Source: Escherichia phage nepoznato
Sequence record: NC_052658.1
Reading direction: 5' to 3' (one strand)
DNA length: 64,000 nt
A program made the position numbers and the translations under genes. Below the pieces are notes generated by a model, which did not search any database, had not been told where the DNA came from, and saw nothing but the letters and a program-made list of their open reading frames with translations. Below, one piece after another: positions 16,317-33,292 of the stretch (position 1 is its first letter; every line of letters begins with the position of its first letter).

Positions 16317-16452
16317 CTATTGAAGATGCAGCTTTGATAGATTATTTAGATGAGTCTAAAATGTCTTTTACTTTTGCCGTGATAACGTCTTGATATTTGT
16401 TAATAAGATAGCCTACAACTACACCTACGATAAATGAAACCATTATTTCTCC

Positions 16453-17061: not shown

Positions 17062-17069
17062 ATAACCTC

Positions 17070-17333: not shown

Positions 17334-17497
17334 TCTTTTTCTTCAACCTTCCTCAAAGCTTTTTGATCGAATATGGCGTGTTGCAATTCCCCGTTTTCAT
17401 CGAACCAAGTTACTTTACAAGATTCACCATAACTTTCTATTACTGTCATTTGTTTGTTTGCACCTTTAAGGCAAACCACATCACCTACTTGCATCAT
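17330..17497 (-). CDS. small YodC/DUF2158-like protein (about 55 aa)
   Basis: Minus ORF MMQVGDVVCLKG..MTV....CKVTWF below track cutoff; approximate coordinates. Confidence 0.35.
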   Translation of the reverse strand: MMQVGDVVCLKGANKQMTVIESYGESCKVTWFDENGELQHAIFDQKALRKVEEKE

Positions 17498-17943: not shown

Positions 17944-18133
17944 AGTGTTTCTCCTCTGATTCTATTTCGATATAGCCTGTGGTTTTGCACGGGTTACACT
18001 CGTAAATTTGACCTACATCCGCCATAACATATCCTGCACCACCACAATAGGGGCAAGGCATAGGAGGACAAGGTATGGACGTAGTGATTGTTACGACATT
18101 ATCAATTTCCAACATTTTCGCCATTATTACCAT
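17927..18133 (-). CDS. small Cys-rich zinc-ribbon-like protein
   Basis: 68 aa with CPPMPCPYCGG and CNPC. Confidence 0.45.
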   Translation of the reverse strand: MVIMAKMLEIDNVVTITTSIPCPPMPCPYCGGAGYVMADVGQIYECNPCKTTGYIEIESEEKHYEPKR

Positions 18134-18372
18134 TCCGCTATTAACGTCAAACCAAGTGCATCGTTAAAACGCTCAACATTTGAGTATAGGTATGGAGGGG
18201 TTATTTGCTCTAAAATTTGTGCTGCTTCCACTTGGTGCTCTATGTTTTGAGAAGTTCGGGCATAAACTAAGACACCCATTTTATTCAAAATAAAAACAGA
18301 ATCAGACCCATCCAGCTTATCAACGGCTGCATACATTTTAGTCATATTTTCTCCTGGATTACCATTCAGCAA
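18127..18372 (-). CDS. hypothetical protein, C-terminal LIAEW (paralog of 18359-18574)
   Basis: 81 aa; shares C-terminal LIAEW-stop with neighbour. Confidence 0.4.
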   Translation of the reverse strand: MLNGNPGENMTKMYAAVDKLDGSDSVFILNKMGVLVYARTSQNIEHQVEAAQILEQITPPYLYSNVERFNDALGLTLIAEW

Positions 18373-18574
18373 TAAGACTAGGATTCATAGCAAAAGCTTT
18401 GAAAGTTGTTATGTCATGACTAACATTAAAACTAACGCCTTTTACTTTCTCTAGTATTTGAACTTTCGTCTCTCCGTCCCACGGTAGTATGATAACACCA
18501 TCTTCTGTGATCAACCACCAATGGTTCTCTCCATCTCGTGAATCTTTTGCTTTGTATAGAAAATTGGAACTCAT
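18359..18574 (-). CDS. hypothetical protein, C-terminal LIAEW
   Basis: 71 aa; RBS AGGAGG; first gene after minus-strand promoter. Confidence 0.45.
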   Translation of the reverse strand: MSSNFLYKAKDSRDGENHWWLITEDGVIILPWDGETKVQILEKVKGVSFNVSHDITTFKAFAMNPSLIAEW

Positions 18575-18612
18575 TCTTCCTCCTGTTCGGTATTATTCAC
18601 TTGTGAGACACA

Positions 18613-18641
18613 ATGTAACACAAGCTTTGTGAGTTTGTCAA
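18613..18641 (-). promoter_or_regulatory. sigma70-type promoter for minus block 18574-15500
   Basis: On minus strand TTGACA, 17-bp spacer, TTACAT with TG two nt upstream. Confidence 0.4.
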
Positions 18642-18775
18642 GGATCTAATTACATTCTACAGAAGAAGAGGGTTAATAACTATAGGAATAGTCTTACTAT
18701 AGGTGCAATACTAGTTAAGAGTTAGATTGATAGGTAAGATTTATCTTAAACACATAATTGATAGGTGAACCAGCA

Positions 18776-18840
18776 TTGACTTTTTCAAAAAAATATGGTA
18801 CCCTAAACATATGTTTACGAGCGATAGCGAGTAGTAGATT
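18776..18840 (+). promoter_or_regulatory. conserved promoter-like element, copy A (TTGACT, 17 bp, TGnTACCCT, then CGAGCGATAGCGAGTA box)
   Basis: About 60-bp near-identical copy at 49918; extended -10 with GC-rich discriminator. Confidence 0.4.
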
Positions 18841-18934
18841 TCTATATAATAATGTTTCATGTTACTCACGATAGTGAGGTATGAAACGTAAGTGAAGGTA
18901 GATAAACTATGATCATCTATCTACCATCTATTAA

Positions 18935-19144
18935 TCAGTATAGATCTAATGTTAGACTAACAGTTATCCAACAAACAATAACAGTCCATATAACAAGTAA
19001 TGATCTACAAAATACATCCCATTCAAATACATTGTATGTTAACCATTCTCCCATCACAACAGAAGAACCTAACCAACATCCAACAATAACTATAATCCAA
19101 TAAAAGAATCCTACAGTGGAGTATATAGCAAAAGCTTTTAACAT
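18935..19144 (-). CDS. small hydrophobic membrane protein
   Basis: 69 aa, W/I/V-rich predicted TM segments; strong RBS GGAGGAAAG. Confidence 0.45.
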   Translation of the reverse strand: MLKAFAIYSTVGFFYWIIVIVGCWLGSSVVMGEWLTYNVFEWDVFCRSLLVIWTVIVCWITVSLTLDLY

Positions 19145-19557
19145 CTTTCCTCCAGAAGTTGTTCAACAGTTTGACGAGTATGATTGTCCCAGTAAACCTT
19201 AGTGAAGTCAAGAGTTCCTTGTTCGTTTCTCTTAGTTTCGAAGAAGTATCCGCCTTCTCTTTCTACTCTGTCTCTAATGTGCTCTATGAGGTGCTTTTTA
19301 CAAGATGCTGATAAACAGTAGTCATACTCCCCACGAAGTAACGCTATAGCTGCAAGTCTGTTATCACCAACTTGAGATATTGTCCAAGAAAGCATACTAC
19401 CTTCTATACCTAAAGGTGTTTGTCGGATTGAATATCCACCATACCGACTGATAGAAATTATGGAGAGTGGTTCTCCTGTTAGAGATCTTCCTAATGCACC
19501 TTCTGTTGGACTTCCTTCAATAATACGTTTGAAAAAAGCTTTGATCTTACCTAACAT
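19138..19557 (-). CDS. hypothetical protein
   Basis: 139-aa ORF. Confidence 0.5.
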   Translation of the reverse strand: MLGKIKAFFKRIIEGSPTEGALGRSLTGEPLSIISISRYGGYSIRQTPLGIEGSMLSWTISQVGDNRLAAIALLRGEYDYCLSASCKKHLIEHIRDRVEREGGYFFETKRNEQGTLDFTKVYWDNHTRQTVEQLLEERC

Positions 19558-19701
19558 AAGTCCCCCTTAAAAACTTACTTGTTTAAAGTATCTCTTACTT
19601 GTTCTGCTTGACGTTTAGTAATAAAAGTTCCAACAGAAACATTAAACTCATTGACTACAGAGAACGATCCATCACGATTCTCACGAATATTAAACAACTT
19701 C

Positions 19702-19905
19702 TTACTCATTACTACCTCCTTCAATGCTTTGTGCCGTACCGTCCCAAGACATTAGAATGTTTGCCAATAGTTCACGAGGCTCTTTAAACCAAACTTCCAT
19801 CTCATCTAGAATCTCGTCCGTGTCGTAAGTATAACCTGGAACACCAAGTTCACATTTCTTAAGGTAGCTTTCTAACCAACGGTGATAATTCTTAACCCCA
19901 TTCAT
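19702..19905 (-). CDS. hypothetical protein
   Basis: 67-aa ORF. Confidence 0.45.
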   Translation of the reverse strand: MNGVKNYHRWLESYLKKCELGVPGYTYDTDEILDEMEVWFKEPRELLANILMSWDGTAQSIEGGSNE

Positions 19906-20278
19906 ACTGTGCTACCTTTTCTTTTACCCAATTTACACGATCTTTGTCATAATGTTGAGTGCCAATGAAAAGAGCATTGTGGAAGCTTTCAGCACCGAAA
20001 GGGTAGATTGGATCTAAACCATCTTCTTCAAATAACATTTTTAGTCTCTTTGATGTAGATTTCTTAGTTTCTGAATCGTAGCTTGTGGTTATAAGCCAAT
20101 CTTCCAAACAACGACATAACCCTTGACGAGAATCCCAAGGAAAAACACAATCTCCGACAGGAGCTTGTTCAGCCCATTTCAACCAGCCTTTAAAAAAGTT
20201 ATACAATATGTAGTCTTCAGTGTAATACATTAGCGCCTCCTTTACGTATACAATAACACCCCGCAGAACGGGGTGCAA
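19892..20278 (-). CDS. hypothetical protein, member of GLC.CL/YPF paralog family
   Basis: Shares W..W......GLCRCLEDWL ... YPFG pattern with 21170, 24605, 28158, 31243. Confidence 0.5.
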   Translation of the reverse strand: MHPVLRGVIVYVKEALMYYTEDYILYNFFKGWLKWAEQAPVGDCVFPWDSRQGLCRCLEDWLITTSYDSETKKSTSKRLKMLFEEDGLDPIYPFGAESFHNALFIGTQHYDKDRVNWVKEKVAQYEWG

Positions 20279-20281
20279 CTA

Positions 20282-20893
20282 TTATTTAATCTGTTTAAAA
20301 ATTTCGTTTGGAACGGTACCGTTTAAAATACCTTCTACGATCTCTTGTGCAGATGTGTAAGAGAGTCCAAAAGAAGCTACGCCTAAAATTGCCTCCTTCA
20401 AAGGATCTGGCAGGGGTTCAAAATTACCTGCAACAAAGCCACCTGCACAAGCAGCGCCTTCATCATCCCAGAAAACAACTGCTACATCGTTACCATGCGA
20501 AGTTGTGCGATGTGCAATAACTTCAACTTCTGTTCCTTCTTTAGGAACAGAATAAGAACTGTCCCAAGAATATCTTTCCAAATCAGGAACAAAGATAACC
20601 TTTTCACCTACTGGCGGCAGTTCACAACGATAATACCAAGAATTTTTTTCGTTCATTGTTTTATTTTCCTCCACGTCTTCAAAAGTAACGATCCAATCGT
20701 AGCCGTAAGAAAACGGATATTTTAGATCTAAAGAATAAGTTTGACCTAGATCGTCCTCAACAAGAACCATCCTGTCAAAGTTTGCGATGTTAGGATTATG
20801 TTTAATGACAGGGTATGTTTCCCCTACAGTAAATTGTCCCAAATGGTAAAGTTCATCTCTCCAAGTAATTTGGATATGAGTGCATTGAATCAT
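20282..20893 (-). CDS. hypothetical protein
   Basis: 203-aa ORF. Confidence 0.55.
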   Translation of the reverse strand: MIQCTHIQITWRDELYHLGQFTVGETYPVIKHNPNIANFDRMVLVEDDLGQTYSLDLKYPFSYGYDWIVTFEDVEENKTMNEKNSWYYRCELPPVGEKVIFVPDLERYSWDSSYSVPKEGTEVEVIAHRTTSHGNDVAVVFWDDEGAACAGGFVAGNFEPLPDPLKEAILGVASFGLSYTSAQEIVEGILNGTVPNEIFKQIK

Positions 20894-20897
20894 AAAA

Positions 20898-21170
20898 TCA
20901 CCCCCAAGAAATATTTATATATCTTACAATGTTTGCACTGTCTAAAGCCATGTTTGCACCACACCCACGCTCGCGCCAATAACTAACAATACCTTCACAG
21001 ATACTCTCTTGTATCTTCTTATCACTTGGCATTTCTAGTATAAGACTTGGGTTGTGGATGTTTATGTTATAATATCCTTCCTCTGCGGCTTGAGCTACCA
21101 ATTTACTTACTTTTTCAAAGTACGGGGAATTAGTGGCATCTGCCATTGCTTTTAAGGTTTGTCTATCCAT
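20898..21170 (-). CDS. hypothetical protein
   Basis: 90-aa ORF. Confidence 0.5.
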   Translation of the reverse strand: MDRQTLKAMADATNSPYFEKVSKLVAQAAEEGYYNINIHNPSLILEMPSDKKIQESICEGIVSYWRERGCGANMALDSANIVRYINISWG

Positions 21171-21568
21171 TATTCTGCCTCATCATAGAAGAAATCCAAC
21201 TCTTGTTCCAGTTGTTTAACTCGCTCCTTAACCCACTGTACACGTTTTTCATTAAACATGCAACGTTTTTCCTTACACTCTTGCTCAAAAGATTTTGCTG
21301 TGTTAAACGGGAAAGTTGTATCTAAACCAGCATTTTCAAAACTGGCTAATTGCATACCATAAACAGAATATGCTAAAGAATGATCGGCTCGAAATTCATC
21401 ACTTATATACATACGTAGACCTCGGCATAAGCCAACATCAGCGTAACCACTTTCTCGTGGAAAGAGACGGAGGTGTTCTAACCAATTATTATAGAAATCT
21501 AAAAGAATCCTCTTACACTTCAAATCAATTGTCATAAAAAGTTTCTCCTTCATCGAACAAGTTGGCAA
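21170..21568 (-). CDS. hypothetical protein, GLC.CL/FPFN paralog family
   Basis: FYNNWLEHL..GLCRGL...FPFN pattern. Confidence 0.5.
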   Translation of the reverse strand: MPTCSMKEKLFMTIDLKCKRILLDFYNNWLEHLRLFPRESGYADVGLCRGLRMYISDEFRADHSLAYSVYGMQLASFENAGLDTTFPFNTAKSFEQECKEKRCMFNEKRVQWVKERVKQLEQELDFFYDEAE

Positions 21569-21935
21569 GATTGTTCACCGCAATTTGGGTGGAAAGAAGA
21601 CAACTGTTTGCAGACACATAAGCACGGGCTATTTTGTAAACATAAACTTTCGTATTGCAATCTTCTAAAATCGGAAGACTTTCATCGATAGCATCTATAA
21701 CACTAAACATCACATCTAAAACTTTAATTGTAAGTATTGTATCTATATCTTCGTAACCTTTTTCAATCCGACCTGAATAGAAAGTATAGTCCTCAACAGT
21801 TCGTCGTTTAAATTGGCGCATAAAATCAGAACCATCTGTAGCAGAATTGAACAAATTTTCAAAAAATACCTCCCATCCGGCAAAAAGGGCTGACAGCATG
21901 ATTAAGTGATCTACAGATTCATTTTCTTGTTTCAT
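21525..21935 (-). CDS. hypothetical protein
   Basis: 136-aa ORF. Confidence 0.5.
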   Translation of the reverse strand: MKQENESVDHLIMLSALFAGWEVFFENLFNSATDGSDFMRQFKRRTVEDYTFYSGRIEKGYEDIDTILTIKVLDVMFSVIDAIDESLPILEDCNTKVYVYKIARAYVSANSCLLSTQIAVNNLANLFDEGETFYDN

Positions 21936-21943
21936 ATCCTCTC

Positions 21944-22621
21944 CTATTTAATGTTCAATCTAGCACACAAGCGAGAAACAGTTTTAGCATCCCACTTACC
22001 ACCACGTGCTGTTGCGATTTTCTTACTATTGAATTTTTCAGCAATAGTTTTGTAAGGTGTATTTAAATCTCTAAGGATTTCTAAGCGTTCACGGAATGTC
22101 TCTGCAAAAGCATCTGCTTTAACAGAATTGTATTCCATTTTTCCTTTTCTACGTGCAGCGGCAGTTTTAGGATTAGCACTGCCTAATAAAACACCTTTGC
22201 TTTTTGCTACAGCAAGACCCTTTTTAATACGATCAGCAATACCTCTGACTTCTTGTTCAGCCAAAACAGACAGAAGCTGTATAACCATTTTATCTGCGTC
22301 TGGCATGATGGCTATCTTAACATCGATCATTTCTAGAAGAGTTGCTACGGAGGCGTTGTTACGACCCAAGCGGTCAACTTTAGCTACCAATAAAGTTGCT
22401 CCGGTAGCTTTACACATTTCAACCGCTTTAACCAGTTCCTTACGTTGCTTCCAATCGCCCTTACCAGAATAGTATTCAGAAAATTGACCAATAACTTCAG
22501 CATCAGGCACAGAGTCTAAGAAGTAACGGATATCGTTCTCTTGGCTCTCCATACCATATTGTGCCTCACCTTTTTTCTGTTTAGAAAGACGACTGTAAAC
22601 AACAAACTTTTTCATAACCAC
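21944..22621 (-). CDS. small serine recombinase (resolvase/invertase family)
   Basis: N-terminal VVYSRLS catalytic-Ser region, VAKVDRLGRN, C-terminal HTH-like tail; about 225 aa. Confidence 0.8.
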   Translation of the reverse strand: MVMKKFVVYSRLSKQKKGEAQYGMESQENDIRYFLDSVPDAEVIGQFSEYYSGKGDWKQRKELVKAVEMCKATGATLLVAKVDRLGRNNASVATLLEMIDVKIAIMPDADKMVIQLLSVLAEQEVRGIADRIKKGLAVAKSKGVLLGSANPKTAAARRKGKMEYNSVKADAFAETFRERLEILRDLNTPYKTIAEKFNSKKIATARGGKWDAKTVSRLCARLNIK

Positions 22622-22685
22622 TCCTAAACCATTGCTGTATTCTCACTTTACAAAACGAATAAACACTTGTCAAGGTATTTATTAT

Positions 22686-22898
22686 TTACAGCCATTCTAC
22701 TTTTAAGCAGTATTCTTCGACATGTTGTTTACGCTTGTTTTTGTCTATGTAAGTGTATTCAACAAATGTCCCAAGATAATCCTTGTCCACATTGTGTTGG
22801 CTATTAATTGGACATTTAGTACGACAAACCCGTTGCCACTGACGAAGAATTACGGCTTTGTTTTTAGGATCAAAGGGATGAGGGTAATGTGCCTTCAT
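22686..22898 (-). CDS. hypothetical protein
   Basis: 70-aa ORF. Confidence 0.45.
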   Translation of the reverse strand: MKAHYPHPFDPKNKAVILRQWQRVCRTKCPINSQHNVDKDYLGTFVEYTYIDKNKRKQHVEEYCLKVEWL

Positions 22899-23222
22899 TC
22901 ACGCCTCCTGTTTTAGTCGAAAAATATTTTGAATAACGAGAGATGTATAGTTATCACTTAGTCCCATAAGTTCTACTTCCAAGTTTCGAATATCTTCCAC
23001 CGTAGGAGGATATGTTGGTAAAAATGCTTGAGCATTACCAGATCCAACCTCATTGCTGTAAGCAGTTGTAAAATTGTAAGATACAAAACATGAAACACCT
23101 TTTTGTCGGTACCCGATTAATCGACGAATACACCAGATAAGAGCCAAACCTATGAGAACACCTCCTAAACCAGCTAACAAGAAGGATAAGTTCATAATAG
23201 CTTCGTTAACAACTGCTTGCAT
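22899..23222 (-). CDS. membrane protein (single TM)
   Basis: Hydrophobic stretch LSFLLAGLGGVLIGLALIW. Confidence 0.5.
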   Translation of the reverse strand: MQAVVNEAIMNLSFLLAGLGGVLIGLALIWCIRRLIGYRQKGVSCFVSYNFTTAYSNEVGSGNAQAFLPTYPPTVEDIRNLEVELMGLSDNYTSLVIQNIFRLKQEA

Positions 23223-23232
23223 TCTTTTCTCC

Positions 23233-23580
23233 TTAGTTGTGTAAACCCAAATGTGCTACAACTTCTCTACGATAAGATAACTGCATAGCGATTTTATAGC
23301 CAGGATGAAAACCATTTACATCAATGTCATCAAACCAAACCTCAAATGAACCGTGTTTAAGAGTCATTAAGTTAATATACCATTCAATAGTATAATGATC
23401 GTTAGCAATACCTTCGATGTAAAATTCTCGACAACAGTGAGATAAATCTTCACTTGTTTCACGTTTCCAGTCTTTGATAGCACCCTTCTCTTTGGCTTTA
23501 TTCAGAATGTGGATCAGGTCTTCAACTTGCATATTCTCTCCTTTAGTTCCAACTAATAATAATGTGTTTGATAATCCCAA
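23233..23580 (-). CDS. hypothetical protein
   Basis: 115-aa ORF. Confidence 0.5.
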   Translation of the reverse strand: MGLSNTLLLVGTKGENMQVEDLIHILNKAKEKGAIKDWKRETSEDLSHCCREFYIEGIANDHYTIEWYINLMTLKHGSFEVWFDDIDVNGFHPGYKIAMQLSYRREVVAHLGLHN

Positions 23581-24097
23581 AAATACTGTGCTCTGCGGTT
23601 GCCAATGTTACATCCAAACCTTTTGCACGTAGCATTGTAGCTACAACATTTGCCCCTCTTTTCTGTTCACTTATCTGTTCATAAGAAGAAGGGTTATTGC
23701 ACAAACCAAAACTGGAAGGTTCAAAGTATTTTTCAAACTTCCCTTGTTCCGCACAATCTTCAATCTCTAATAGAACGGCGTCTACCATTTCAGTAAAATG
23801 GGAATTTGCTTGCAGTGCTTTATTACGCAGTTTATCACGTAAACTTCCCGTAGATTCTTCCTGCTCTTCTGTCTGTCCATCTTCACAGAAAGGATGAAGT
23901 TCAGCCCAGTCCCAAGCATCTCCTTCTAAAGCAAATAGAGTGTTGTAATTGAAGAAAGTGCAGCGCGGATATTCCCCGTTGAAAGAATCTTTCAGCAGAA
24001 TATATTTCTTACCGTTTGCATGGAAGAGTTCTCCTTTGATAACCTTACCTACAAGGATATCACTGTTAGTGGAACGGGTGCAAATAAACTTTTTCAT
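23543..24097 (-). CDS. hypothetical protein
   Basis: 184-aa ORF. Confidence 0.5.
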   Translation of the reverse strand: MKKFICTRSTNSDILVGKVIKGELFHANGKKYILLKDSFNGEYPRCTFFNYNTLFALEGDAWDWAELHPFCEDGQTEEQEESTGSLRDKLRNKALQANSHFTEMVDAVLLEIEDCAEQGKFEKYFEPSSFGLCNNPSSYEQISEQKRGANVVATMLRAKGLDVTLATAEHSIFGIIKHIIISWN

Positions 24098-24159
24098 GAT
24101 TTTCTCCTCTTTGTTTCGATGAGATGATTATGACAAAGACAGATCCTTCTGTCAACTAT

Positions 24160-24381
24160 TTATTTCCATTCCCCTTGGTGTTCTTTGATCTCATAAGAGT
24201 AGTATTCGAACATGCTCATACAAACCACACCAGACATTTCTAAACAAAGAGGTTTACTATTATAAAAGGCACTTATCATTCTTCCAGCTTTATCTGCTGA
24301 CTCTTTAGTATCACATCCACAAACTGTTCTCACCCAAGGATCAGGGCCATCATATTTAAGACGCACAATCCACATGATCAT
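24160..24381 (-). CDS. hypothetical protein
   Basis: 73-aa ORF. Confidence 0.45.
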   Translation of the reverse strand: MIMWIVRLKYDGPDPWVRTVCGCDTKESADKAGRMISAFYNSKPLCLEMSGVVCMSMFEYYSYEIKEHQGEWK

Positions 24382-24605
24382 TCTTCCATCTCAAACCATT
24401 CAGGGAACACTTTGCGGAAGACCCGCGTGTTTTCTAAGAGAAATTCCAACTCTTTTTCCAAATCTGCGTTCCAACCGTTTATTTTAACACGGATTGCCAA
24501 TGCACTTGCACGGCGACTCAATTCTTGACAGATTGGATCACGCAGAACTATTGAGTCATAAAACTGACAAACAGCCTCAAGTTCATACCAGTTATAATCC
24601 GACAT
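24378..24605 (-). CDS. hypothetical protein
   Basis: 75-aa ORF. Confidence 0.45.
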   Translation of the reverse strand: MSDYNWYELEAVCQFYDSIVLRDPICQELSRRASALAIRVKINGWNADLEKELEFLLENTRVFRKVFPEWFEMEE

Positions 24606-24931
24606 TATTCATCCTCCTCTGCAATACGATCTCTTACCCAATTAATCCTGTCCACGTTCAGGTGACATACCTCTGCATCTGATTCTAAGACATATGCATC
24701 GTAGTTCTCATTGAAAGGGAGTGCTTGACTCAACCCTTTGTGGTAAAACTGTGCGTGCATTTCATCTGACAAGGTTGTTATAAGGGGATTGTAATTACCT
24801 CTGTGCACATAATCGAACAAGTTGGCACACAAACCACAATCCCGCCGAAAAGGTTTACCATCAGGAGCACCAACATCAATCCATGCTAGATAAATTTTAT
24901 AAAACTCCATCAACCTTGTGCTTGTTTTCAT
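24605..24931 (-). CDS. hypothetical protein, GLC.NL/LPFN paralog family
   Basis: FYKIYLAWI..GAPDGKPF..DCGLCANLFDYV ... LPFN. Confidence 0.5.
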   Translation of the reverse strand: MKTSTRLMEFYKIYLAWIDVGAPDGKPFRRDCGLCANLFDYVHRGNYNPLITTLSDEMHAQFYHKGLSQALPFNENYDAYVLESDAEVCHLNVDRINWVRDRIAEEDE

Positions 24932-25169
24932 TTAGCCACCTCGTTAGTTTTTCTTGCTCTTTGTTTGCGCGTTCTAAGCTTCTGAACTTTAAACAGAGGG
25001 AACGAGAATCCCTACCCATGCACAAGCTTTCATCTAAGCTGTGCTCCCCAACCAACCAAAGAGAGTATGTTTGAACATCTAACCCATAGTTTCTGTCTTT
25101 CCATAATCTCACCCCAAGAACATCAAAAGGAGCTTCCGCGACTAAAGAAAGAAACCGATCTTTATTCAT
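24897..25169 (-). CDS. hypothetical protein
   Basis: 90-aa ORF. Confidence 0.45.
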   Translation of the reverse strand: MNKDRFLSLVAEAPFDVLGVRLWKDRNYGLDVQTYSLWLVGEHSLDESLCMGRDSRSLCLKFRSLERANKEQEKLTRWLNENKHKVDGVL

Positions 25170-25231
25170 ATTACACCACCTTGCTCACGTTGATAATGTA
25201 TGTATACCATACATAAAATAAATGTCAAGGC

Positions 25232-25432
25232 TTATCGACACAGATAGTTGTAACGATCTGCTTTATCCTCGGCTTCAGCAAAGTCAGCAATCAAGGAAGT
25301 TTTGAGTTCTTCCAACTCTTTCACCCAAGAGTCGTAATCGTTCTGTGTTTCTCCAATAGTTTGGAGAAAACAATCGTCGTAGCCAATAGACATGGCTAAC
25401 TCGATAATACGTTCCAGTTTTTCTTCCATCAC
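25232..25432 (-). CDS. hypothetical protein
   Basis: 66-aa ORF. Confidence 0.45.
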   Translation of the reverse strand: MMEEKLERIIELAMSIGYDDCFLQTIGETQNDYDSWVKELEELKTSLIADFAEAEDKADRYNYLCR

Positions 25433-25791
25433 TTCTCTCCTTCTACAGACTTCTGTTTAACATAAAAGTAAGCACCACGAGCAAGATACAAATCATGTTC
25501 AATATCGCTCACAGGAAAACCATCTGGATTTTTAAAACCGTCTTCTACAGCCAAAATGAGAGATCGTAAACTGATAGCTAACAACTCCATTTGATCTTGT
25601 AGTTTTCTATTTTCTGCATAAAGGTTTTTGCATTTTTGTTCTGCATTTTTCCATTGTTCTAATGCATGATCATAGTTTCGCATAAGGATAGCTTTTTCTT
25701 GTTCACGTTTAAAAGTTTCTTCACAAATGAAACCCGTGCCTAAACCAGTTTCTTCATCTTTGACAAACACTTCAACAAAATCTTTAGACAT
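25429..25791 (-). CDS. hypothetical coiled-coil protein
   Basis: Track ORF 25429-25923; start moved to internal ATG preceded by AGGAGA, removing overlap. Confidence 0.45.
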   Translation of the reverse strand: MSKDFVEVFVKDEETGLGTGFICEETFKREQEKAILMRNYDHALEQWKNAEQKCKNLYAENRKLQDQMELLAISLRSLILAVEDGFKNPDGFPVSDIEHDLYLARGAYFYVKQKSVEGEK

Positions 25792-25792
25792 A

Positions 25793-26056
25793 TTATCTCC
25801 TATTTGCTTTTGGATACTCCCAACCCTCTGGGAGATCTTCTTTACACATCCACTCAAAAGGCCAGCGACAATAACTGTGCCACTTTCCATCGAGATACAA
25901 GCAATCTTCATCCACTGGTCCACAAGGGTTGATAACTACAACACACCCTTTTGCTCGCCAATATTGAACTATTTCAGGGTAAAAACAAGAAACGTCGGTC
26001 CACTCCCAAATACGTTCATCATTCAAACGGTATGCTGCTGGCAATGTCTCTTTCAT
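25793..26056 (-). CDS. hypothetical Trp/Cys-rich protein
   Basis: 87-aa ORF. Confidence 0.45.
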   Translation of the reverse strand: MKETLPAAYRLNDERIWEWTDVSCFYPEIVQYWRAKGCVVVINPCGPVDEDCLYLDGKWHSYCRWPFEWMCKEDLPEGWEYPKANRR

Positions 26057-26060
26057 ATTA

Positions 26061-26507
26061 TTAAACCTCTGTCAAAGAGAAACGCCAATCCTTACTACTA
26101 CCTACACCAAGGAAGATATAGTCTCCGGTACTAACGGAATATCTCCAAGCGGGAATCCAATCAGGAATCTCTGGCTTATGGCTGTAGCCATAACGCTCGC
26201 CACTCGAATCTGTTGCAATATAATTAACAAATTCAGGAACCTCTAAAGTTTCACCTTGATACTCTACACGCTTGAAGCCATCTTCCACTTCTTTCTCACC
26301 TTCTACCAGAAGGGCAAGAAGTTTGATGTGAGGGCAAGTGAAATCTTGTCCTGGATAACGTGAACGGATATCTGTTAACAATGCGACTACAGCATCCGAT
26401 AACTCTTTATAATCCTCATATCTTACAAATGTACCTTCTGTCGGATCATCAGGACACAAACGCCAAACATCGTTGCAGTTTACAGCATAATGTCTCATTT
26501 TAGTCAT
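26061..26507 (-). CDS. hypothetical protein
   Basis: 148-aa ORF. Confidence 0.5.
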   Translation of the reverse strand: MTKMRHYAVNCNDVWRLCPDDPTEGTFVRYEDYKELSDAVVALLTDIRSRYPGQDFTCPHIKLLALLVEGEKEVEDGFKRVEYQGETLEVPEFVNYIATDSSGERYGYSHKPEIPDWIPAWRYSVSTGDYIFLGVGSSKDWRFSLTEV

Positions 26508-26579
26508 AAATACCTCTATTCATATATTAAGAAACCCAAAATAATAACCAGAACAATGAAAATGATAGTCTCTATCATA

Positions 26580-26828
26580 TTACCAAGCTGCCACTACCCC
26601 AGTGCGTAGGGTTTCTTCATACCCCCAAATATCTGCACTAAGAGCAACAGCAGTCCATTCTGGGGACCAAGTAAAACCCAACAGATCTGTCATCTTTTCA
26701 GCATCTTTTTTAATGCTTTCTTCATCAGAGAAAACACGGTAAAGATCTTCCAACTCTTTTGTAATCTCTGCACGTTCTTCTTCGGTAATCGGTGTTCCTA
26801 CACGATCAGTAGTAAAAACATTCAGCAT
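26580..26828 (-). CDS. hypothetical protein
   Basis: 82-aa ORF. Confidence 0.45.
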   Translation of the reverse strand: MLNVFTTDRVGTPITEEERAEITKELEDLYRVFSDEESIKKDAEKMTDLLGFTWSPEWTAVALSADIWGYEETLRTGVVAAW

Positions 26829-26837
26829 AATATCCCC

Positions 26838-27236
26838 TTATCGTTGCGTACAATCAGCTTCTAGAGTAAGAACATTCGTTATTGTTTTATCATTTTTTAG
26901 AAATGCAAACCAAGCCAAAGTGTCTCGATACTCTGTGCGCATCATCACAACTTCGGTAGTGCCAATAAACTGCTGTGAACCGTACATAGAACTTCCATCT
27001 TTACTCTTTCCTCCTGTGTTTTGAAGAATACCGCTCATCAAAGCACCACCCGAATTTTTAAGGATAAAAGAGTTATCTTTATTAATGACAACAGAAGCCA
27101 TTTTCTTAGGACCAGAAATCACTTCACCTTTCAGATTTTTAACAACTACATCTGATACACACTCATAAACTTGAGACGCATTTGCTGTTCCAAGAGATGC
27201 AATGAGTAACAATAAACCTACGATAATCTTTTTCAT
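26838..27236 (-). CDS. secreted or lipoprotein-like protein
   Basis: N-terminal signal peptide MKKIIVGLLLLIASLGTANA. Confidence 0.55.
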   Translation of the reverse strand: MKKIIVGLLLLIASLGTANASQVYECVSDVVVKNLKGEVISGPKKMASVVINKDNSFILKNSGGALMSGILQNTGGKSKDGSSMYGSQQFIGTTEVVMMRTEYRDTLAWFAFLKNDKTITNVLTLEADCTQR

Positions 27237-27331
27237 ATAAACTCTCCTCTTTGTTTACCCGATGCGCCCCTGTTGGGCGGAAAGGGTTGTACGCAAAATT
27301 TTTAGCTCCAATCGTCGGGTGTCCCGACTCC

Positions 27332-27538
27332 TTACGCTTTTAATGTTTTAACAGAATGACAAGCTTTGCAAACCATAACCGGAACAAGTTCGTCTCCACT
27401 ATCCGCATAAATCACTGTTTTCTTCATTCTGCCACCACATGAACAATACTCTGTATGATCCGCTGGAATATTAAATATTCCGTAATCACTTTCATACTGT
27501 TTCTTACATATGGACACTGCTTTTGTAAAACAAGACAT
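27332..27538 (-). CDS. small zinc-ribbon-like protein
   Basis: 68 aa with CSCGG and CKACH. Confidence 0.45.
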   Translation of the reverse strand: MSCFTKAVSICKKQYESDYGIFNIPADHTEYCSCGGRMKKTVIYADSGDELVPVMVCKACHSVKTLKA

Positions 27539-27540
27539 AC

Positions 27541-27762
27541 CTACTCCGAAAGAACATTCACTTCGTCAGAGAAAAATACGTAATCACAACCTTCCCAAAC
27601 ATCTTCTTCAAACCACTCCCATCCCTCAACTTTGGACATTTCTTCTATCGTAACAAAGAATGTTGTCATATCATCACTAACAAGATGTGCTTCAACAACA
27701 AAAGGAATCTGAACATTCTCAAAACCAACATAACCCAATACATCACAAACTCTAATTTTCAT
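27541..27762 (-). CDS. hypothetical protein (paralog of 30752-30982)
   Basis: Shared W.W.E....G.DYVFF C-terminal pattern. Confidence 0.45.
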   Translation of the reverse strand: MKIRVCDVLGYVGFENVQIPFVVEAHLVSDDMTTFFVTIEEMSKVEGWEWFEEDVWEGCDYVFFSDEVNVLSE

Positions 27763-27763
27763 A

Positions 27764-27964
27764 TTATGCTCCTTTGTAGATTATGTTGGTGCGTTCACAC
27801 TCTGCCACCAGCAAGCGATTAGCAATGTTGTCCATAGGAACATCAATCTCTACGCTCCAGGCATTGATATACACTTCTTCAATCTTTGCTCCAAGCATTT
27901 GTGCGATCAGAGCAACAGCCCCAGCATATTCAAGTTTAATCTCAATTACCATTTTGCACCTCAA
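27764..27964 (-). CDS. hypothetical protein
   Basis: 66-aa ORF. Confidence 0.4.
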   Translation of the reverse strand: MRCKMVIEIKLEYAGAVALIAQMLGAKIEEVYINAWSVEIDVPMDNIANRLLVAECERTNIIYKGA

Positions 27965-27966
27965 GG

Positions 27967-28167
27967 TTATTTATCTTGCTTATATCTTACAAGGCGATCA
28001 CACTCCAGGTCAAGAAATTTCTCCGCATTTCGTTCATGTTTGAGCACAATACATTGTTCTTTCAAGTCTGTAGCTCTTTGCTGCGCGGCTCCTGGGTCAA
28101 AATCCCAAAGCCATGCGGCGAAAAGAACAACCATAACAATTGCCAAGAAAACAAACACTATAGGCAT
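27967..28167 (-). CDS. small membrane protein
   Basis: Track ORF 27967-28203; start moved to ATG after AGGAGG; hydrophobic IVFVFLAIVMVVLFAAWLW. Confidence 0.4.
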   Translation of the reverse strand: MPIVFVFLAIVMVVLFAAWLWDFDPGAAQQRATDLKEQCIVLKHERNAEKFLDLECDRLVRYKQDK

Positions 28168-28472
28168 TGCACATCCTCCTGTGTAGCATGATCTTTTACC
28201 CATTTTATACGGGCAGCATTCAAATGCAATAGCCCGTTTCTTTGTGCAAAATCATATTTAAACCAGTCTCCGTCATCAAACGGGTATTCTTCAGACAACC
28301 CTGCTTCTCGAAATTGCATTTGCATTTCATAATTTAGGTCATCATAACCACCAGACCAAAGATAGAGGCAACTACATAATCCTTTATCATGCCAGAAAGG
28401 ATTATTATCTGGAGCACCAGCTAATAGCCAGTTATGATATGCCTGATAAAATTCTTTAAGTTCCTCTGACAT
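28158..28472 (-). CDS. hypothetical protein, GLC.CL/YPF paralog family
   Basis: FYQAYHNWLLAGAPDNNPF..DKGLCSCLYLW ... YPFD. Confidence 0.5.
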   Translation of the reverse strand: MSEELKEFYQAYHNWLLAGAPDNNPFWHDKGLCSCLYLWSGGYDDLNYEMQMQFREAGLSEEYPFDDGDWFKYDFAQRNGLLHLNAARIKWVKDHATQEDVQCL

Positions 28473-28664
28473 TTAACCTCCTGTATGCAGTGTTGAAAGA
28501 TACGCAGCAAAAGCATTCTCGGCTGTTTTCACCTCCTCTTCAAGATCTTCACGCTCTGCTGGCGTTAATGCATTCCGCACAGCAGCGTCTGCTTCTCGGA
28601 TTTTTCTTACTAAACGTGAAACATCTTTCAATTGTTGAAAAGTAGCCATAATCTTTCTCCTGTT

Positions 28665-28949
28665 TTAGTTAGTGTCACGCCATTCGGCAATCTCTTCGGC
28701 TAAACGATCACAAGAATCGAAAGCCACTTTACCTTTAGTCTGATTTTCATGTCGTACTTCCTTCAATGCGAGTAATGCGTTCACCAGATTATCAACACCT
28801 TGATCATCCAGTGCGATAACATCGAAGTTAAACCCTGTATCAGTTGGGACTTTACGTTTTATGGTGTAATAGTCTCCTTCATGACGTTCAACATACGCGT
28901 ATGGGTAACTGCTGTTTGGATCATGTTTCACGCGAATAGATGTTTTCAT
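28665..28949 (-). CDS. hypothetical protein
   Basis: 94-aa ORF. Confidence 0.45.
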   Translation of the reverse strand: MKTSIRVKHDPNSSYPYAYVERHEGDYYTIKRKVPTDTGFNFDVIALDDQGVDNLVNALLALKEVRHENQTKGKVAFDSCDRLAEEIAEWRDTN

Positions 28950-28964
28950 GTTTTGTTCTCCTCT

Positions 28965-29216
28965 TTAATCAAACCAGTTGTATTCGGAAGGGTAACGAGC
29001 GTAGTTTGGCTTGTACCCCAGTCTTTTCATCTTAACAGACATACGAGTGAAGCCAAAAGTTGTTTTGCCCTTAGACATAAACTTCTTCCCACTCTTCATT
29101 GGCTTCTTAGGGTTTTTGATCGTCTGGTGTAACGCTCGCGCAAGCCACAAAGTGTATGCGCTAGGCACTTGATTAACTTTCATCTTGTTACCTTTCATCA
29201 TTTCACCTCGGACCAA
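28965..29216 (-). CDS. hypothetical basic protein
   Basis: 83 aa, K-rich. Confidence 0.45.
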   Translation of the reverse strand: MVRGEMMKGNKMKVNQVPSAYTLWLARALHQTIKNPKKPMKSGKKFMSKGKTTFGFTRMSVKMKRLGYKPNYARYPSEYNWFD

Positions 29217-29497
29217 TCAATAGTGATCCACTCATATGCTCCGTTTAGGTCCATTTCTTTATAAACAACAAGCCCACGCTCACGAAGAATTGCTACTGCT
29301 TCATCCATCCATTTCACCTGATTGTAGATTTCCCCTGGGTGGGTAGGGGAATTATCCAGACCAAAATCGGATGGCGTGAAATTCCTTGAAGAGTTTCCCG
29401 CTCGTGCTTCAGCAAAACAAGTCTCGATCACTTCTTCAACAGGGAAGTTGAAGGAAGCTTCTTTTGCAATACGGCGTAACTGTTCAGTCAGATTCAT
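29198..29497 (-). CDS. hypothetical protein
   Basis: 99-aa ORF. Confidence 0.45.
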   Translation of the reverse strand: MNLTEQLRRIAKEASFNFPVEEVIETCFAEARAGNSSRNFTPSDFGLDNSPTHPGEIYNQVKWMDEAVAILRERGLVVYKEMDLNGAYEWITIDWSEVK

Positions 29498-29524
29498 CTT
29501 ATTCTCCTTTCGTTGTGTGAAACA

Positions 29525-29962
29525 TTATAACAGATCTAATGCTTTCAACTCTTCTTTCAATGATTCAAGCAGGTCACATTCAACGTCAATCAGAGATAAC
29601 AAGTGACCAACAATGCCTTCCAGATGTTGATACTCACTATAACTTATAAATTCAGAATTGTAAACAGAAACATCCTTAGTTTCTTTCACAACTTCCCCCG
29701 CAGACACGCAAATAAAAAAGTTACGCTCTCCGCGAGCTAACAATATCTCCCAACTTCTGAACGGATACTGTCCAGCCTCAATAATATCCCCGCTGTCCAA
29801 TAAAGTCAATGAGCAAACAGACCCTGATTCACTAACATCTTCGACGCGGAAACAAGACCCGTCAATCAAAGCCGCCATTTTGAAATTTTCATCAGAGATC
29901 ATAGAGAAAGCTTCACATGCAGCTTTACTTTTGAAACAGTAAACAGCATTAACTTTAAACAT
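29525..29962 (-). CDS. hypothetical protein
   Basis: 145-aa ORF. Confidence 0.5.
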   Translation of the reverse strand: MFKVNAVYCFKSKAACEAFSMISDENFKMAALIDGSCFRVEDVSESGSVCSLTLLDSGDIIEAGQYPFRSWEILLARGERNFFICVSAGEVVKETKDVSVYNSEFISYSEYQHLEGIVGHLLSLIDVECDLLESLKEELKALDLL

Positions 29963-30050
29963 AACATTCCCCTTTTAAACAAAAGACACACCGATGGTAG
30001 CAACAACCAGACGCTTATAAACTTCAACCTCTTCTGTAGGATTAGCCATT

Positions 30051-30503
30051 TTATGCTCTGCCTAGTTCATCATACCATTTCAAAGCGTCTTTTGGAAGCA
30101 TACCAAAATCTTCTTTTAGTTCTTTTTCAATCTCTTCTTTCAGTTCATTCAACACTTGCAGTTGGCGTATTTTCTTCCGTAACAAAGCTTCCCGTTCACT
30201 GTTGCTTGGTGTTACTTCATTTCCTGCTATCATCACATATCCTGTCGGAGAGCAAGGAAGATAGTCATCAATATCTTCTAAAGCATAACGATAATTGGAG
30301 TCCAGGAAGTTTACATGCACACGATCACATCCAAACAAGGTAGCACGGAATACTTCGTAACGAGTTTCAGATAGGATATGTTGCACACAGACAATACCTA
30401 CATCATTTTGCACTGCACAGGTTACATCCAACAAACTTGAATGTTCTTTGACATAATCTGCAACACATTGCACATGTGCTTCCAGTATAGATAGTTGTTT
30501 CAT
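30051..30503 (-). CDS. hypothetical protein
   Basis: 150-aa ORF. Confidence 0.5.
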   Translation of the reverse strand: MKQLSILEAHVQCVADYVKEHSSLLDVTCAVQNDVGIVCVQHILSETRYEVFRATLFGCDRVHVNFLDSNYRYALEDIDDYLPCSPTGYVMIAGNEVTPSNSEREALLRKKIRQLQVLNELKEEIEKELKEDFGMLPKDALKWYDELGRA

Positions 30504-30748
30504 TTTCTACCTCCCCATAATGCTAACATTTTATTGAAAATGGAAACGCGTCGTGCGCGAGATGCCATATCATAATTCATTCTTTCCGTCTCTGCAAGAA
30601 ATTGATCTACTGTAATCAACGCTTTTGTCTTCTCTTTCAGAGTTTGCATATTCATCCATTCACATTCAGAGTACCAATTATCGAAATACAAACTATCAAG
30701 AAGATCCATTGCTGCTTCATTCTGTTGTGGTGTGATCATTGCACACAA
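30500..30748 (-). CDS. hypothetical protein
   Basis: 82-aa ORF. Confidence 0.45.
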   Translation of the reverse strand: MCAMITPQQNEAAMDLLDSLYFDNWYSECEWMNMQTLKEKTKALITVDQFLAETERMNYDMASRARRVSIFNKMLALWGGRK

Positions 30749-30751
30749 CCT

Positions 30752-30982
30752 TTAATAAACAATTTCATATTCGTGAGGAAAGAAAACATAATCTTCTCCT
30801 TCTCGTGCATCTATCTCGTCCCAAAACCATTCCTGCACTTCCATCATCTTCGAGAATCGCACATGAGCAAGTCCACTGTATTCCACCGTAGCTTCCAGCA
30901 CAAGTGGAAATTTTGCATGTGCCAAGCCTTTATAACCACCATCATTCTCAATACGAATTTTCATGCGTTTCATGTTATGCAT
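30752..30982 (-). CDS. hypothetical protein (paralog of 27541-27762)
   Basis: W.W.E....GEDYVFF pattern. Confidence 0.45.
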   Translation of the reverse strand: MHNMKRMKIRIENDGGYKGLAHAKFPLVLEATVEYSGLAHVRFSKMMEVQEWFWDEIDAREGEDYVFFPHEYEIVY

Positions 30983-31184
30983 CCTTCAGACCCTTAATAA
31001 AGTAACGACCAACCGGATTCCCTCGGAAGTATTCGTTAATGAAATCGATAACACACGTTTCACTGCCTGTCACAACGGACGGCTTACAGTTTTGGAATTC
31101 TACAGCTACACGGCTGGCTTTAGCCAGTGCTTGCACACGTGTAGGATTAGTCAAGAACATTGTGACAGTTTTCAAATTCTTCAT
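30975..31184 (-). CDS. hypothetical protein
   Basis: 69-aa ORF. Confidence 0.45.
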   Translation of the reverse strand: MKNLKTVTMFLTNPTRVQALAKASRVAVEFQNCKPSVVTGSETCVIDFINEYFRGNPVGRYFIKGLKDA

Positions 31185-31242
31185 TTCATCTCCTCATTAA
31201 CTGTTTGTTATGCGCGGTATGCAAACTATCATACAAACATCT

Positions 31243-31617
31243 TTATTCAATGCAAGCATTATTTGCATCTTCAATTCTGTCTTTCACCCACTGAAGACGT
31301 AACGTGTTGGTATGACACGCCAAGTTTATACACTCTGAAAGGTAATCCATGCAATCTGCATTGAACGGAAGATTGTAGTCCAGCCCTGCACATGTAAATT
31401 GTTTCCTCATTTCATATTTCAAACGGTCTAACAAATGATCACGCCATCTTCTATCTTCTTCTCTAGTTGTCTCACCAACAAAATCATCTACGTAATCTAC
31501 CAGACAACCACATAAGCCACTCGTTGTGCGATTCATTGCAGGATAGTTGGCAATCCATGCTTTATAGAAGCGAAGCAATGTTGCACTACTCAACGGAACA
31601 TTTTTACTCTCTTGCAC
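31243..31617 (-). CDS. hypothetical protein, GLC.CL/LPFN paralog family
   Basis: FYKAWIANYP...GLCGCLVDYV ... LPFN. Confidence 0.5.
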   Translation of the reverse strand: MQESKNVPLSSATLLRFYKAWIANYPAMNRTTSGLCGCLVDYVDDFVGETTREEDRRWRDHLLDRLKYEMRKQFTCAGLDYNLPFNADCMDYLSECINLACHTNTLRLQWVKDRIEDANNACIE

Positions 31618-31955
31618 GATAATCTCCTCTCATCATTAGCCATCTTTCATGGCAATCATCAATCACCAACATCATACGATCAATCTTCGGCAATTACAAT
31701 CGAATTATCATAGGGGATTCCTATCAATTATCCCATATATACTGATTATTTTTGACACCCCACTCTTGTATAAAAAGTAACCCAAAATATCTACGGGGAG
31801 AGATTATTTCGGGACACCCTGTTTCATGGCAATCATGGCAAGAATATCTAATAGAATCAATATCATATGGCAAAAATCATGGCGTATACGTAAGAAGTGC
31901 TTAACGCGAATTTTCGGGCCGTCAGGTCCACGCAGCGACAATTCCCAAATATCAT

Positions 31956-31979
31956 GCGAATGAGAATAATTATCATTCG
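31956..31979. promoter_or_regulatory. Fur-box-like palindrome
   Basis: GCGAATGAGAATAATTATCATTCG; GATAAT/ATTATC hexamer arrangement. Confidence 0.3.
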
Positions 31980-32137
31980 TATTCAATGACTTATGCAAGG
32001 CTCATGCCAACATAGCGACAAGGTGGGCCACTTGATTATAAATCACACAAACACTTATTTATCAATGGTTTGGCAACTTCATCATATGACGGAACATTGT
32101 CAACTGATCCCGCTCATGACAAGCAGACTATTATTTA

Positions 32138-32156
32138 TATGAGAATGATTATTATT
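32138..32156. promoter_or_regulatory. Fur-box-like element
   Basis: ATGAGAATGATTATTATT. Confidence 0.25.
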
Positions 32157-32213
32157 TAAACGTTTATTAACATAAAAACTAAAATAAATCAAGATTATTC
32201 TGATTTTATTTAC

Positions 32214-32410
32214 GTTTAAGAGAAGGTGCTCAACATCCTACCGGATCGCCGTTGGCAATCCTGCGGATATTTACGCCCCCATGATTAAGGTTTATCTCTT
32301 TTCTTAGTGCTCAACATATCGCGTAGCGATAGTATTCGCCCCCGTGATATTTGCTCTTCTCTTAGTGCTCAACATTCCCGCCTGTGGCGGTAACATTTCG
32401 CCCCCAAAAT
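32214..32410. repeat. three direct iterons: CTTAGTGCTCAACAT box, variable short hairpin, (A)TTTCGCCCCC box
   Basis: Boxes near 32225, 32304 and 32363, each followed 30-40 bp later by CGCCCCC; spacing about 60-70 bp. Confidence 0.6.
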
Positions 32411-32453
32411 TATTGACTTTTATTCTATTATGTGCATAGTGTGCAATGTATCG

Positions 32454-32472
32454 GAATGATGATAATCATCCT
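32454..32472. promoter_or_regulatory. Fur-box-like palindrome
   Basis: GGAATGATGATAATCATCC (GATGAT-A-ATCATC). Confidence 0.3.
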
Positions 32473-32779
32473 CCCATTGCCCCCATAATTATTGCCATGC
32501 TAATTGTTTCCTTATGTAATTATCACAATGACTATTGTTATTGCGCTAATGTTATGATCTTGGTAATTACATATAATGCTAATAATAAGCCAGCGCAATA
32601 AGTGTAAGCGTCATTACGCTTGCAATTATTGCAAGCTACGCAGTAACAAGAAATAACCATCACCGATGGTTATGATTGTTGGGGTGTAGTTGGCTTATTA
32701 TTAGCTCGCTACGTGTCCGGCGTAGCGTGCTAATGATGAGTCTGTAAATGATTCATTGTGTAATGATTTCATTCAGGCA

Positions 32780-32995
32780 CTATTTTGCTAATAGTTATTA
32801 TTTTAATGGTTTCGTTTGTTATTGTTCGTTAGTTGGTTGTTTTGTCGTGTTATCGTTATCTTGCTTAGTATTCATCATGGTTTGATTGTTTGTCGTTATC
32901 AATCATCTTGCTATTATTCCTTTGATTATGATTAGTTTGCTTATTGTTTTATGTTGTTTGTTGGTTAGTTGTTGCGAACTATTATCAACATTATA
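32780..32995. repeat. T/G-skewed low-complexity tract (GTT/TTG-rich, nearly A-free on plus strand)
   Basis: About 200 bp of gtttgttattgttcgttagttggttgttttgtcg... with extreme strand asymmetry. Confidence 0.5.
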
Positions 32996-33030
32996 ATTAT
33001 GCGCTTATATTGCATAGATAATCATGGGTA

Positions 33031-33050
33031 GATGATAATGGTTATCATTG
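33031..33050. promoter_or_regulatory. Fur-box-like element
   Basis: GATGATAATGGTTATCATTG. Confidence 0.25.
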
Positions 33051-33271
33051 CACTAGAAAGGAGGTAAAAGGGTGTTTTTGATGGTTTGTTGTTGGTTGTT
33101 GATCGATTTTAACCGCTCTAAATGGCTCTCTAACAGCCTGTAACCCTGGGAGGTATGGTTATTCGTTTGCTGGTTGATTAGCTCGATACCGCGATTTATT
33201 CAGTTTTGTTCTGTGTCGGTTTTTCATAGGCGGAAGCTATCAATATTGTTCGGGCAAAAATAAAGGGCGCT

Positions 33272-33292
33272 TAGTGCGCCCCTTGTATAATC
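33272..33292 (-). terminator. intrinsic terminator (minus strand) ending the cassette array
   Basis: On minus strand GGGGCGCACUAAGCGCCC hairpin then UUUAUUUUU. Confidence 0.6.

Follow-up and report, generated by a model that had tools for sequence, protein, structure and literature searches.

Five small genes on the minus strand of Escherichia phage nepoznato, lying between positions 19892 and 31617 of the 64,000-nucleotide stretch of sequence record NC_052658.1 that was analysed here (the window), are real, separately maintained protein-coding paralogs of one scaffold, which has been duplicated and has diverged. We propose, at a probability of roughly 0.45, that their products are early binding modules directed at host factors or at components of host defence, the variable H2-H3 and H4 regions of a helical fold providing the specificity. 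The genes, referred to as P1 to P5, are the following (lengths in amino acids, aa; E values are those of the match to PHROG 2510).

P1: 19892..20230, minus strand, 112 aa; true start ATG 20230, not TTG 20278; E = 7.6e-27
P2: 21170..21535, minus strand, 121 aa; true start ATG 21535; E = 5.3e-26
P3: 24605..24931, minus strand, 108 aa; the copy whose structure was modelled; E = 4.8e-32
P4: 28158..28472, minus strand, 104 aa; AGGAGG upstream of the start; E = 6.4e-29
P5: 31243..31617, minus strand, 124 aa; GTG start with GAGGAG upstream; E = 2.3e-25

Five paralogs of one small-protein family

A preliminary description of this DNA had grouped the five open reading frames (ORFs) into one family that shares three short motifs. 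This grouping is borne out by several independent comparisons. The five ORFs align along their whole length, and the shared motifs are statistically supported. In BLASTP searches against the 680 six-frame ORFs of the window, every pair of copies is recovered with E = 6e-20 to 4e-3, and no other ORF among the 680 scores below 0.15. A hidden Markov model (HMM) built from any four copies finds the fifth with E = 2e-15 to 1e-23. All five match PHROG 2510, a cluster of unknown function, over the full length with E = 1e-25 to 1e-32, and show weaker matches to PHROG 6418, 27059 and 2176. The leave-one-out HMM and PHROG 2510 E values refute the possibility that the motifs are a chance resemblance, the probability of which is negligible. 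No sixth copy was found in the window: HMMs built from 5 or 117 members match only these five, the next E being at least 0.47.

The copies had also been described as otherwise diverged, in agreement with the pairwise identity of 23-41% over match columns. The window paralogs are as far from one another as from members in unrelated phages; therefore, either the duplications are old or the copies were acquired separately. The motifs fared unequally. The N-terminal module, given as [FY]Y..[WY]L, is exact in P2 and P3 and does not fit the other three copies literally. The central GLC.CL box fits P1, P4 and P5, while its literal form fails in P2 and P3, the pattern invariant in all five being GLC..L. 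The C-terminal [YLF]PF[DGN] box fits every copy. The strongest conserved box, a C-terminal N..R[VIL].WV, had been overlooked.

The minus strand and the stop codons originally assigned to the five ORFs turned out to be correct, and the starts were over-extended for P1 (20278) and P2 (21568). The ATG of P1 at 20230 is preceded by AAGGAGG 7 nucleotides (nt) upstream, and relatives annotate this gene with a length of 339 nt; the ATG of P2 at 21535 is preceded by GAAGGAG, and relatives annotate 366 nt. The N-terminal extensions that lead to the over-long starts of P1 and P2 are hypervariable among orthologs. In addition, the annotation of phage Schickermooser places a terminator at the site that matches the following hairpin, inside the over-extended reading of P1.

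20256..20276, minus strand: terminator-like hairpin between the upstream gene and P1, with a 9-bp stem that includes 6 GC pairs

The preliminary description had regarded the family as the signature of an arms race, for which a raised ratio of nonsynonymous to synonymous substitution rates (dN/dS) among orthologs was looked for. No such rise was found: the pooled value is 0.16 for the family vs. 0.14 for other genes of the block. With the corrected starts, Nei-Gojobori counts pooled over 5-6 non-independent comparisons give gene-wide dN/dS values, which site-specific selection could escape, of 0.15 for P1, 0.09 for P2, 0.27 for P3, 0.01 for P4 and 0.22 for P5, P4 having 1 variable site among 5 orthologs. 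The low dN/dS thus indicates that all five genes are functional and kept by purifying selection, and there is no positive selection at the level of whole genes. These values also bear on the suggestion that the copies are remnants of duplication without a function, or else selfish filler ORFs, with which the high mosaicism and frequent gene gain and loss of the block would agree. The dN/dS of 0.01-0.27 in every copy largely refutes this suggestion; moreover, the ORFs and Shine-Dalgarno sites are intact in all copies, and the family is conserved over very distant phage lineages (~1,800 clusters). We consider it very improbable.

Predicted fold and conserved residues

The AlphaFold2 model of P3, calculated from a 23-sequence alignment, has a mean predicted local distance difference test score (pLDDT) of 93.6 and a predicted template modelling score (pTM) of 0.86. 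It consists of five helices (H1 to H5) at residues 5-19, 34-42, 50-64, 77-85 and 93-107. A Foldseek search against 350,542 PDB chains gave a best E of 3.3 with a template modelling (TM) score of 0.33; therefore, the predicted fold is without a solved counterpart. A PDB sequence search likewise gave no match to the family, and the fold matches in BFVD are only uncharacterised phage proteins of the same family, among them a T7-like member from Burkholderia phage JG068. Neither a signal peptide nor a transmembrane segment was seen by eye in the five sequences. On the basis of the model, each protein is predicted to be a cytoplasmic five-helix domain of ~100 aa that lacks a solved structural counterpart. 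All five are acidic, with an isoelectric point (pI) of 4.54-5.51 and a net charge of -3 to -10.

Residue conservation was computed over 172 domains and is given in P3 numbering. A hydrophobic frame is formed by L7, F10, Y11, Y14, W17, F28, L34, L38, M58, F62, L67, F73, Y80, W98 and V99; P72 and F73 are conserved at 99%. It is accompanied by a set of conserved polar residues: C35 and R95 (99% each), N92 (92%), Q61 (81%), E57 (78%), S4 (76%), E83 (75%), N74 (71%), N37 (69%) and H90 (68%). Variable positions and indels are concentrated in two stretches, 75-88 and 43-56, the latter comprising the H2-H3 connection and the beginning of H3. The conserved polar residues map to the N-termini of H2 and H5 and to the H3-H4 loop, and from those positions alone we infer that they may form one pocket. 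The presence of about ten such residues around a 99%-invariant Cys suggests that the members have a biochemical core in common and are not simply an inert scaffold.

It can be assumed, alternatively, that the family has one common biochemical activity, being a Cys-dependent enzyme or offering a small-molecule pocket (e.g., a sponge for a nucleotide immune signal), the paralogs being specificity variants. The strong polar conservation centred on C35 and R95 over the 172 domains and the clustering of these residues in the three places just named are in line with this explanation, as is C-N-C-H as the commonest combination of residues at 35/37/89/90. However, H90 and C89 are not universal: Tyr replaces H90 in 17% of domains, and P2 has no His. 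The extra cysteines do not co-vary with C89, which makes a metal site inconsistent, and a consistent Cys/His metal site was rejected for this reason. Several of the polar residues could be mere helix caps or salt bridges, and no known enzyme or sponge has a fold that an all-helical domain of 100 aa would match. Tandem fusions would fit an oligomeric sponge. Two or three domain copies occur in one polypeptide in 21 of the 145 best clusters, and the AlphaFold2 model of one two-domain relative (pTM 0.76) weakly suggests that the domains in such fusions pack on, or associate with, each other. On balance, a single common activity is the main alternative to the binding modules, favoured by the many conserved polar residues, and seems less likely than these.

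Several known types of protein were considered and rejected. The solved anti-defence sponges and inhibitors (Acb2, Tad1, Tad2, Ocr, ArdA, Arn, AsiA and others) show neither fold nor sequence similarity to the family. A DNA-mimic anti-restriction protein would be expected to imitate the phosphate pattern of DNA by a strongly acidic surface, with a pI of ~4 or lower, not 4.54-5.51 and a net charge of only -3 to -10, and no fold match to such a protein was obtained. With the PADLOC models of anti-phage defence proteins, only noise-level hits were obtained (E of at least 0.0018).

Distribution, copy number and the terminal array

The family is widespread. A HMMER search over 1.84 billion representative proteins returned 1,817 clusters (defined at 50% identity) with E <= 1e-3, of which 850 have E <= 1e-10. 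A tblastn search with one member as the query found 674 places in 253 phage records. Members occur in Stephanstirmvirinae, Vequintavirinae (rV5-like), N4-like, T4-like, T7-like, jumbo and sipho lineages; further carriers are Rhizobium, Delftia and Achromobacter phages, jumbo Burkholderia and Xanthomonas phages, and ~45-kb siphophages. The named hosts of the carriers are all Proteobacteria. In the T4-like Yersinia phage JC221, four consecutive head-to-tail members lie downstream of DNA ligase (locus 3630-4974), an independent tandem expansion in another phage family.

In all annotated relatives the members are labelled as hypothetical proteins. Neither for the five ORFs nor for 10 distant relatives did Pfam-A or NCBIfam give a hit that reaches its cut-off. 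A word-indexed protein search with a 5-sequence profile found 39 relatives, all close; with a 117-sequence profile it gave 16 hits, none of which has a Pfam domain, and with the two-domain relative P0040 as the query 2 hits. The word-indexed searches and the cluster look-up revealed neither a fusion with any known domain nor a name that is informative, and a GTDB genome scan with the consensus sequence or with the relative P0172 gave no match. The literature search yielded nothing on the family beyond entries in two genome papers, where the best hit of an early gene is given as a hypothetical protein of phAPEC8; the multi-copy arrangement and the dynamics of the terminal array described below are not reported in the literature found. 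The family is thus catalogued automatically, in PHROG and pVOG, and otherwise undescribed. PHROG 2510, whose profile the five proteins match over the full length, and VOG7392 are clusters without a function, a curated model or a structure; in Justusliebigvirus muut the VOG7392 label is carried by muut_111, muut_115 and muut_121, and the counterpart of P5 in this phage bears it. As for DUF551 and the Ead/Ea22-like proteins of lambdoid and rV5-like phages, the relatives P0163 and P0172 carry extra C-terminal modules, and the Av-05 gene matched by the family-domain part of P0172 (residues 27-149) is a DUF551 domain-containing protein according to the RefSeq annotation; in contrast, the five window proteins are single-domain. 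The family is widespread in phages of Proteobacteria (~1,800 clusters and at least 253 sequenced phages of many unrelated lineages), yet it has no curated family, structure or function.

Window positions 19000-32000 are 96-97% identical at the nucleotide level to many Escherichia phages of the genus Phapecoctavirus, the near-identical relatives including vB_EcoM_REC, ESCO5, phAPEC8 and Schickermooser. On this similarity, the window is assigned to a phAPEC8-like E. coli myophage of Phapecoctavirus, subfamily Stephanstirmvirinae. Schickermooser has a direct terminal repeat of 329 bp (its positions 1-329 equal 150866-151194). Its position 1 corresponds to window position 32230 and its final base, 151194, to 31902; therefore, the window spans the joined genome ends. 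The start of P5 lies 285 nt from the repeat boundary, which makes P5 the first gene of the left arm, and all five family genes fall within ~12.5 kb from the left terminal repeat. They belong to a block of small accessory genes close to the terminus and are packed in operons in which neighbours overlap or abut. The features at the genome ends are as follows.

31585..31605, unstranded: recombination junction; in REC, ev052 and Schickermooser, each of the two tandem copies has a 5' end that matches it
31618..31793, minus strand: conserved leader 5' of P5, of high identity to muut, with promoter-like hexamers at 31699-31671 and 31832-31803
31902..32230, unstranded: single-copy equivalent of the terminal repeat, mapped from Schickermooser; marks the physical genome ends

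The region 31618-33292 (~1.7 kb), which contains the single 329-bp repeat copy, is without a convincing gene. A 64-aa ORF at 31804-31998 has a dN/dS of about 1, and there is a 129-nt indel at 32237-32365 relative to Schickermooser.

The copy number ranges from 3 to 9 in Stephanstirmvirinae. The window has 5 copies, as has vB_Ec-G1; REC, ev052, Schickermooser and ZCKP1 have 6 each, phiWec190 has 8, phiWec186 has 9 and muut has 3. In a related metagenomic contig, 7 genes that lie within 13.6 kb encode 8 domains. Several copies are swapped for alleles of 26-52% identity in some relatives (P3, for instance, is replaced by a 51%-identical allele in ZCKP1), and the same is true of many other genes of the block. 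Compared with nine relative loci, the left-arm block (16000-32000) is mosaic throughout, many genes being missing or replaced by distant alleles, even between phages that are ~96% identical elsewhere.

The copies at the genome end form a tandem array of 1-3 units across the relatives. The terminus-proximal copy always begins with MQESKNVPLSS, and later copies begin with M-x-x-N-I-P-L-S-S. In P5, the only unit of the array in the window, the MQESKNVPLSS head typical of the terminus-proximal copy is followed by a body like that of the second copy. In blastn alignments the two parts overlap at the junction: the second copy is matched by 31000-31598/31605, and the sequence upstream of the first copy by 31585-32236. 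P5 is a recombinant, the footprint of a contraction of the tandem array by unequal recombination. The terminus-proximal array gains and loses units by recombination in the shared 5' segment. Metagenomic relatives of P5 are clearly mosaic: P0014 equals P5 at residues 1-11 and in the last ~48 residues and diverges across 12-76, and P0025 and P0034 combine other halves.

The relationship of P5 to its counterpart in muut, a phage of a different genus, is also unlike that of its neighbours. P5 is 95% identical to the muut copy in tblastn and 97% over HMM match columns, vs. 26-81% for the other genes of the block that have a muut match, most having none. At the nucleotide level, positions 31181-31793 (P5 and its leader) are 90.8% identical to muut, and the rest of the block has no nucleotide similarity to it. 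Of the arms-race interpretation, the duplication, the divergence, the copy number of 3-9, the recombination of the array and the mosaic alleles stand, and the raised dN/dS does not.

Proposed role and neighbouring genes

According to the scheme that we favour, the five proteins would be made at the very start of infection and would act stoichiometrically, as small binding modules on host components that are either takeover targets or anti-phage defence proteins. The fold would be fixed by the hydrophobic core and the polar cluster of C35, N37, E57, Q61, N74, E83, H90, N92 and R95. Each copy would owe its specificity to hypervariable parts, namely the connection between H2 and H3, the first half of H3, and H4/H4-H5. 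The single copy in podophages vs. the 3-9 diverged copies in large broad-host-range myophages might then reflect a larger number of targets or target variants in the latter. The wording 'inhibitors with different targets' in the preliminary description should be taken as an interpretation of this kind.

Early expression is suggested by the position of the genes by the terminal repeat and by two relatives located in early regions: in an N4-like contig a member directly follows the homologues of gp1 and gp2, and in the T7-like phage JG068 a member is gene 5, ahead of the primase. No phapecoctavirus transcriptome was found in the literature. The neighbourhood of the N4 gp1 and gp2 homologues would also suit a phage-internal role, in which the proteins are DNA-binding or RNA-polymerase-associated regulators. 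This role is less likely because the proteins are acidic (pI 4.5-5.5 in all five) and without DNA-binding features; no beta wing is predicted, and the combination of a helix-turn-helix, a beta wing and a basic recognition surface, by which a winged-helix/helix-turn-helix regulator would be recognised, was not found. Besides, multiple diverged copies of variable number are unusual for core regulators, and the family lies outside the conserved core of these phages. Taken together, a regulatory function appears improbable.

Several observations weigh against the binding-module proposal as well. The dN/dS of the family is not above that of neighbouring genes, and gene turnover is a property of the whole block and not specific to the family. 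About ten conserved polar residues and a 99%-invariant Cys exceed what a passive scaffold would need and fit a shared ligand or catalysis equally well. No similarity to known anti-defence proteins in PDB was detected with Foldseek. Finally, a scan for sigma-70 promoters gave 44 sites vs. 43.4 expected, overall not above chance.

The proposal has parallels among known systems. Poxvirus Bcl-2-like proteins and T4 Alt/ModA/ModB are viral paralogs on one scaffold that have different host targets. The window family is similar to them in duplication, divergence (here 23-41% identity) and purifying selection; there is no sequence or fold relationship, so that the analogy is one of evolutionary pattern only. 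Like Tad1, Tad2, Acb2, Ocr, ArdA and Arn, some of which are oligomeric, the proteins are small, predicted to be cytoplasmic and encoded in the first-entering or early region. The immunity arrays of polymorphic toxins (Imm, SUKH) consist of small proteins in several diverged copies, sometimes fused in tandem. The window family is likewise small, multi-copy, diverged and sometimes fused in tandem; however, it has no match to Pfam Imm or SUKH families, and its context is the early region of a virulent phage, not toxin loci.

A bolder version of the proposal is possible, but we put it forward only tentatively. The family may be a structurally unprecedented class of counter-defence or takeover proteins with a Cys-centred pocket, the paralogs of which would neutralise different immune systems or signals. 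The terminal array would then operate as a recombination 'accordion' in which a variable H1-H3 cassette is exchanged while the 5' head and 3' tail on either side stay conserved, so that new specificities arise. A ligand bound in the conserved Cys pocket, if there is one, would make this a new fold among phage immune-evasion proteins. In view of the genome-end position, the multi-copy state in broad-host-range myophages and the recombining array, the family is well suited as a candidate for a new module of host takeover or counter-defence. With five diverged copies, this easily grown E. coli phage offers a ready experimental system.

Other genes of the block also deserve mention. There is a second paralog pair at 27541-27762 and 30752-30982 (both minus strand; 73 and 76 aa), which shares a C-terminal W.W..E....EG.DYVFF (BLASTP E = 1.6e-10). 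A third pair is encoded at 23543-24097 and 29198-29497 (minus strand); here a protein of 99 aa is similar to the C-terminal half of one of 184 aa (E = 1e-7). A Pfam scan of the second and third pairs gave no match. Just upstream of the gene at 23543-24097 lies a near-consensus sigma-70 promoter at 24155-24127 (minus strand; TTGACA, 17 nt, TG-CATAAT; 11 of 12 matches), with a bidirectional hairpin beside it at 24138-24153. The label 'goF mRNA metabolism modulator' was rejected for the P1-P5 family; it belongs to the genes at 29525-29962 and 30051-30503 (minus strand), which carry it in some relatives and have no Pfam match here. In ev052 and ZCKP1, an allele of 53% identity takes the place of the 150-aa gene of these two.

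The 70-aa ORF at 22686-22898 (minus strand) has a full-length match to DUF7202 (E = 1.8e-37); some relatives wrongly call it 'ABC transporter ATP-binding protein'. Its nucleotide identity to a T4-like phage gene, named tk.3 in phage AR1, is 78-81%, which points to an exchange of genes between Straboviridae and Stephanstirmvirinae. The small-gene block has in its middle a serine recombinase (21944-22621, minus strand) with a Resolvase N-terminal domain (E = 5e-18), which is annotated in relatives as a DNA invertase, a resolvase or, wrongly, methionine ABC transporter. Some host labels of matching records look doubtful: OP562383.1, 'Acinetobacter phage vB_AbaM_ABPW7', shares 96% identity with the E. 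coli phage block described here, and the same doubt concerns MG065689.1 and MG065645.1 ('Campylobacter phage A110a' and 'A145'), which have only matches to the P5 region (~92% nucleotide identity over a few hundred bases) or tblastn matches to the family.

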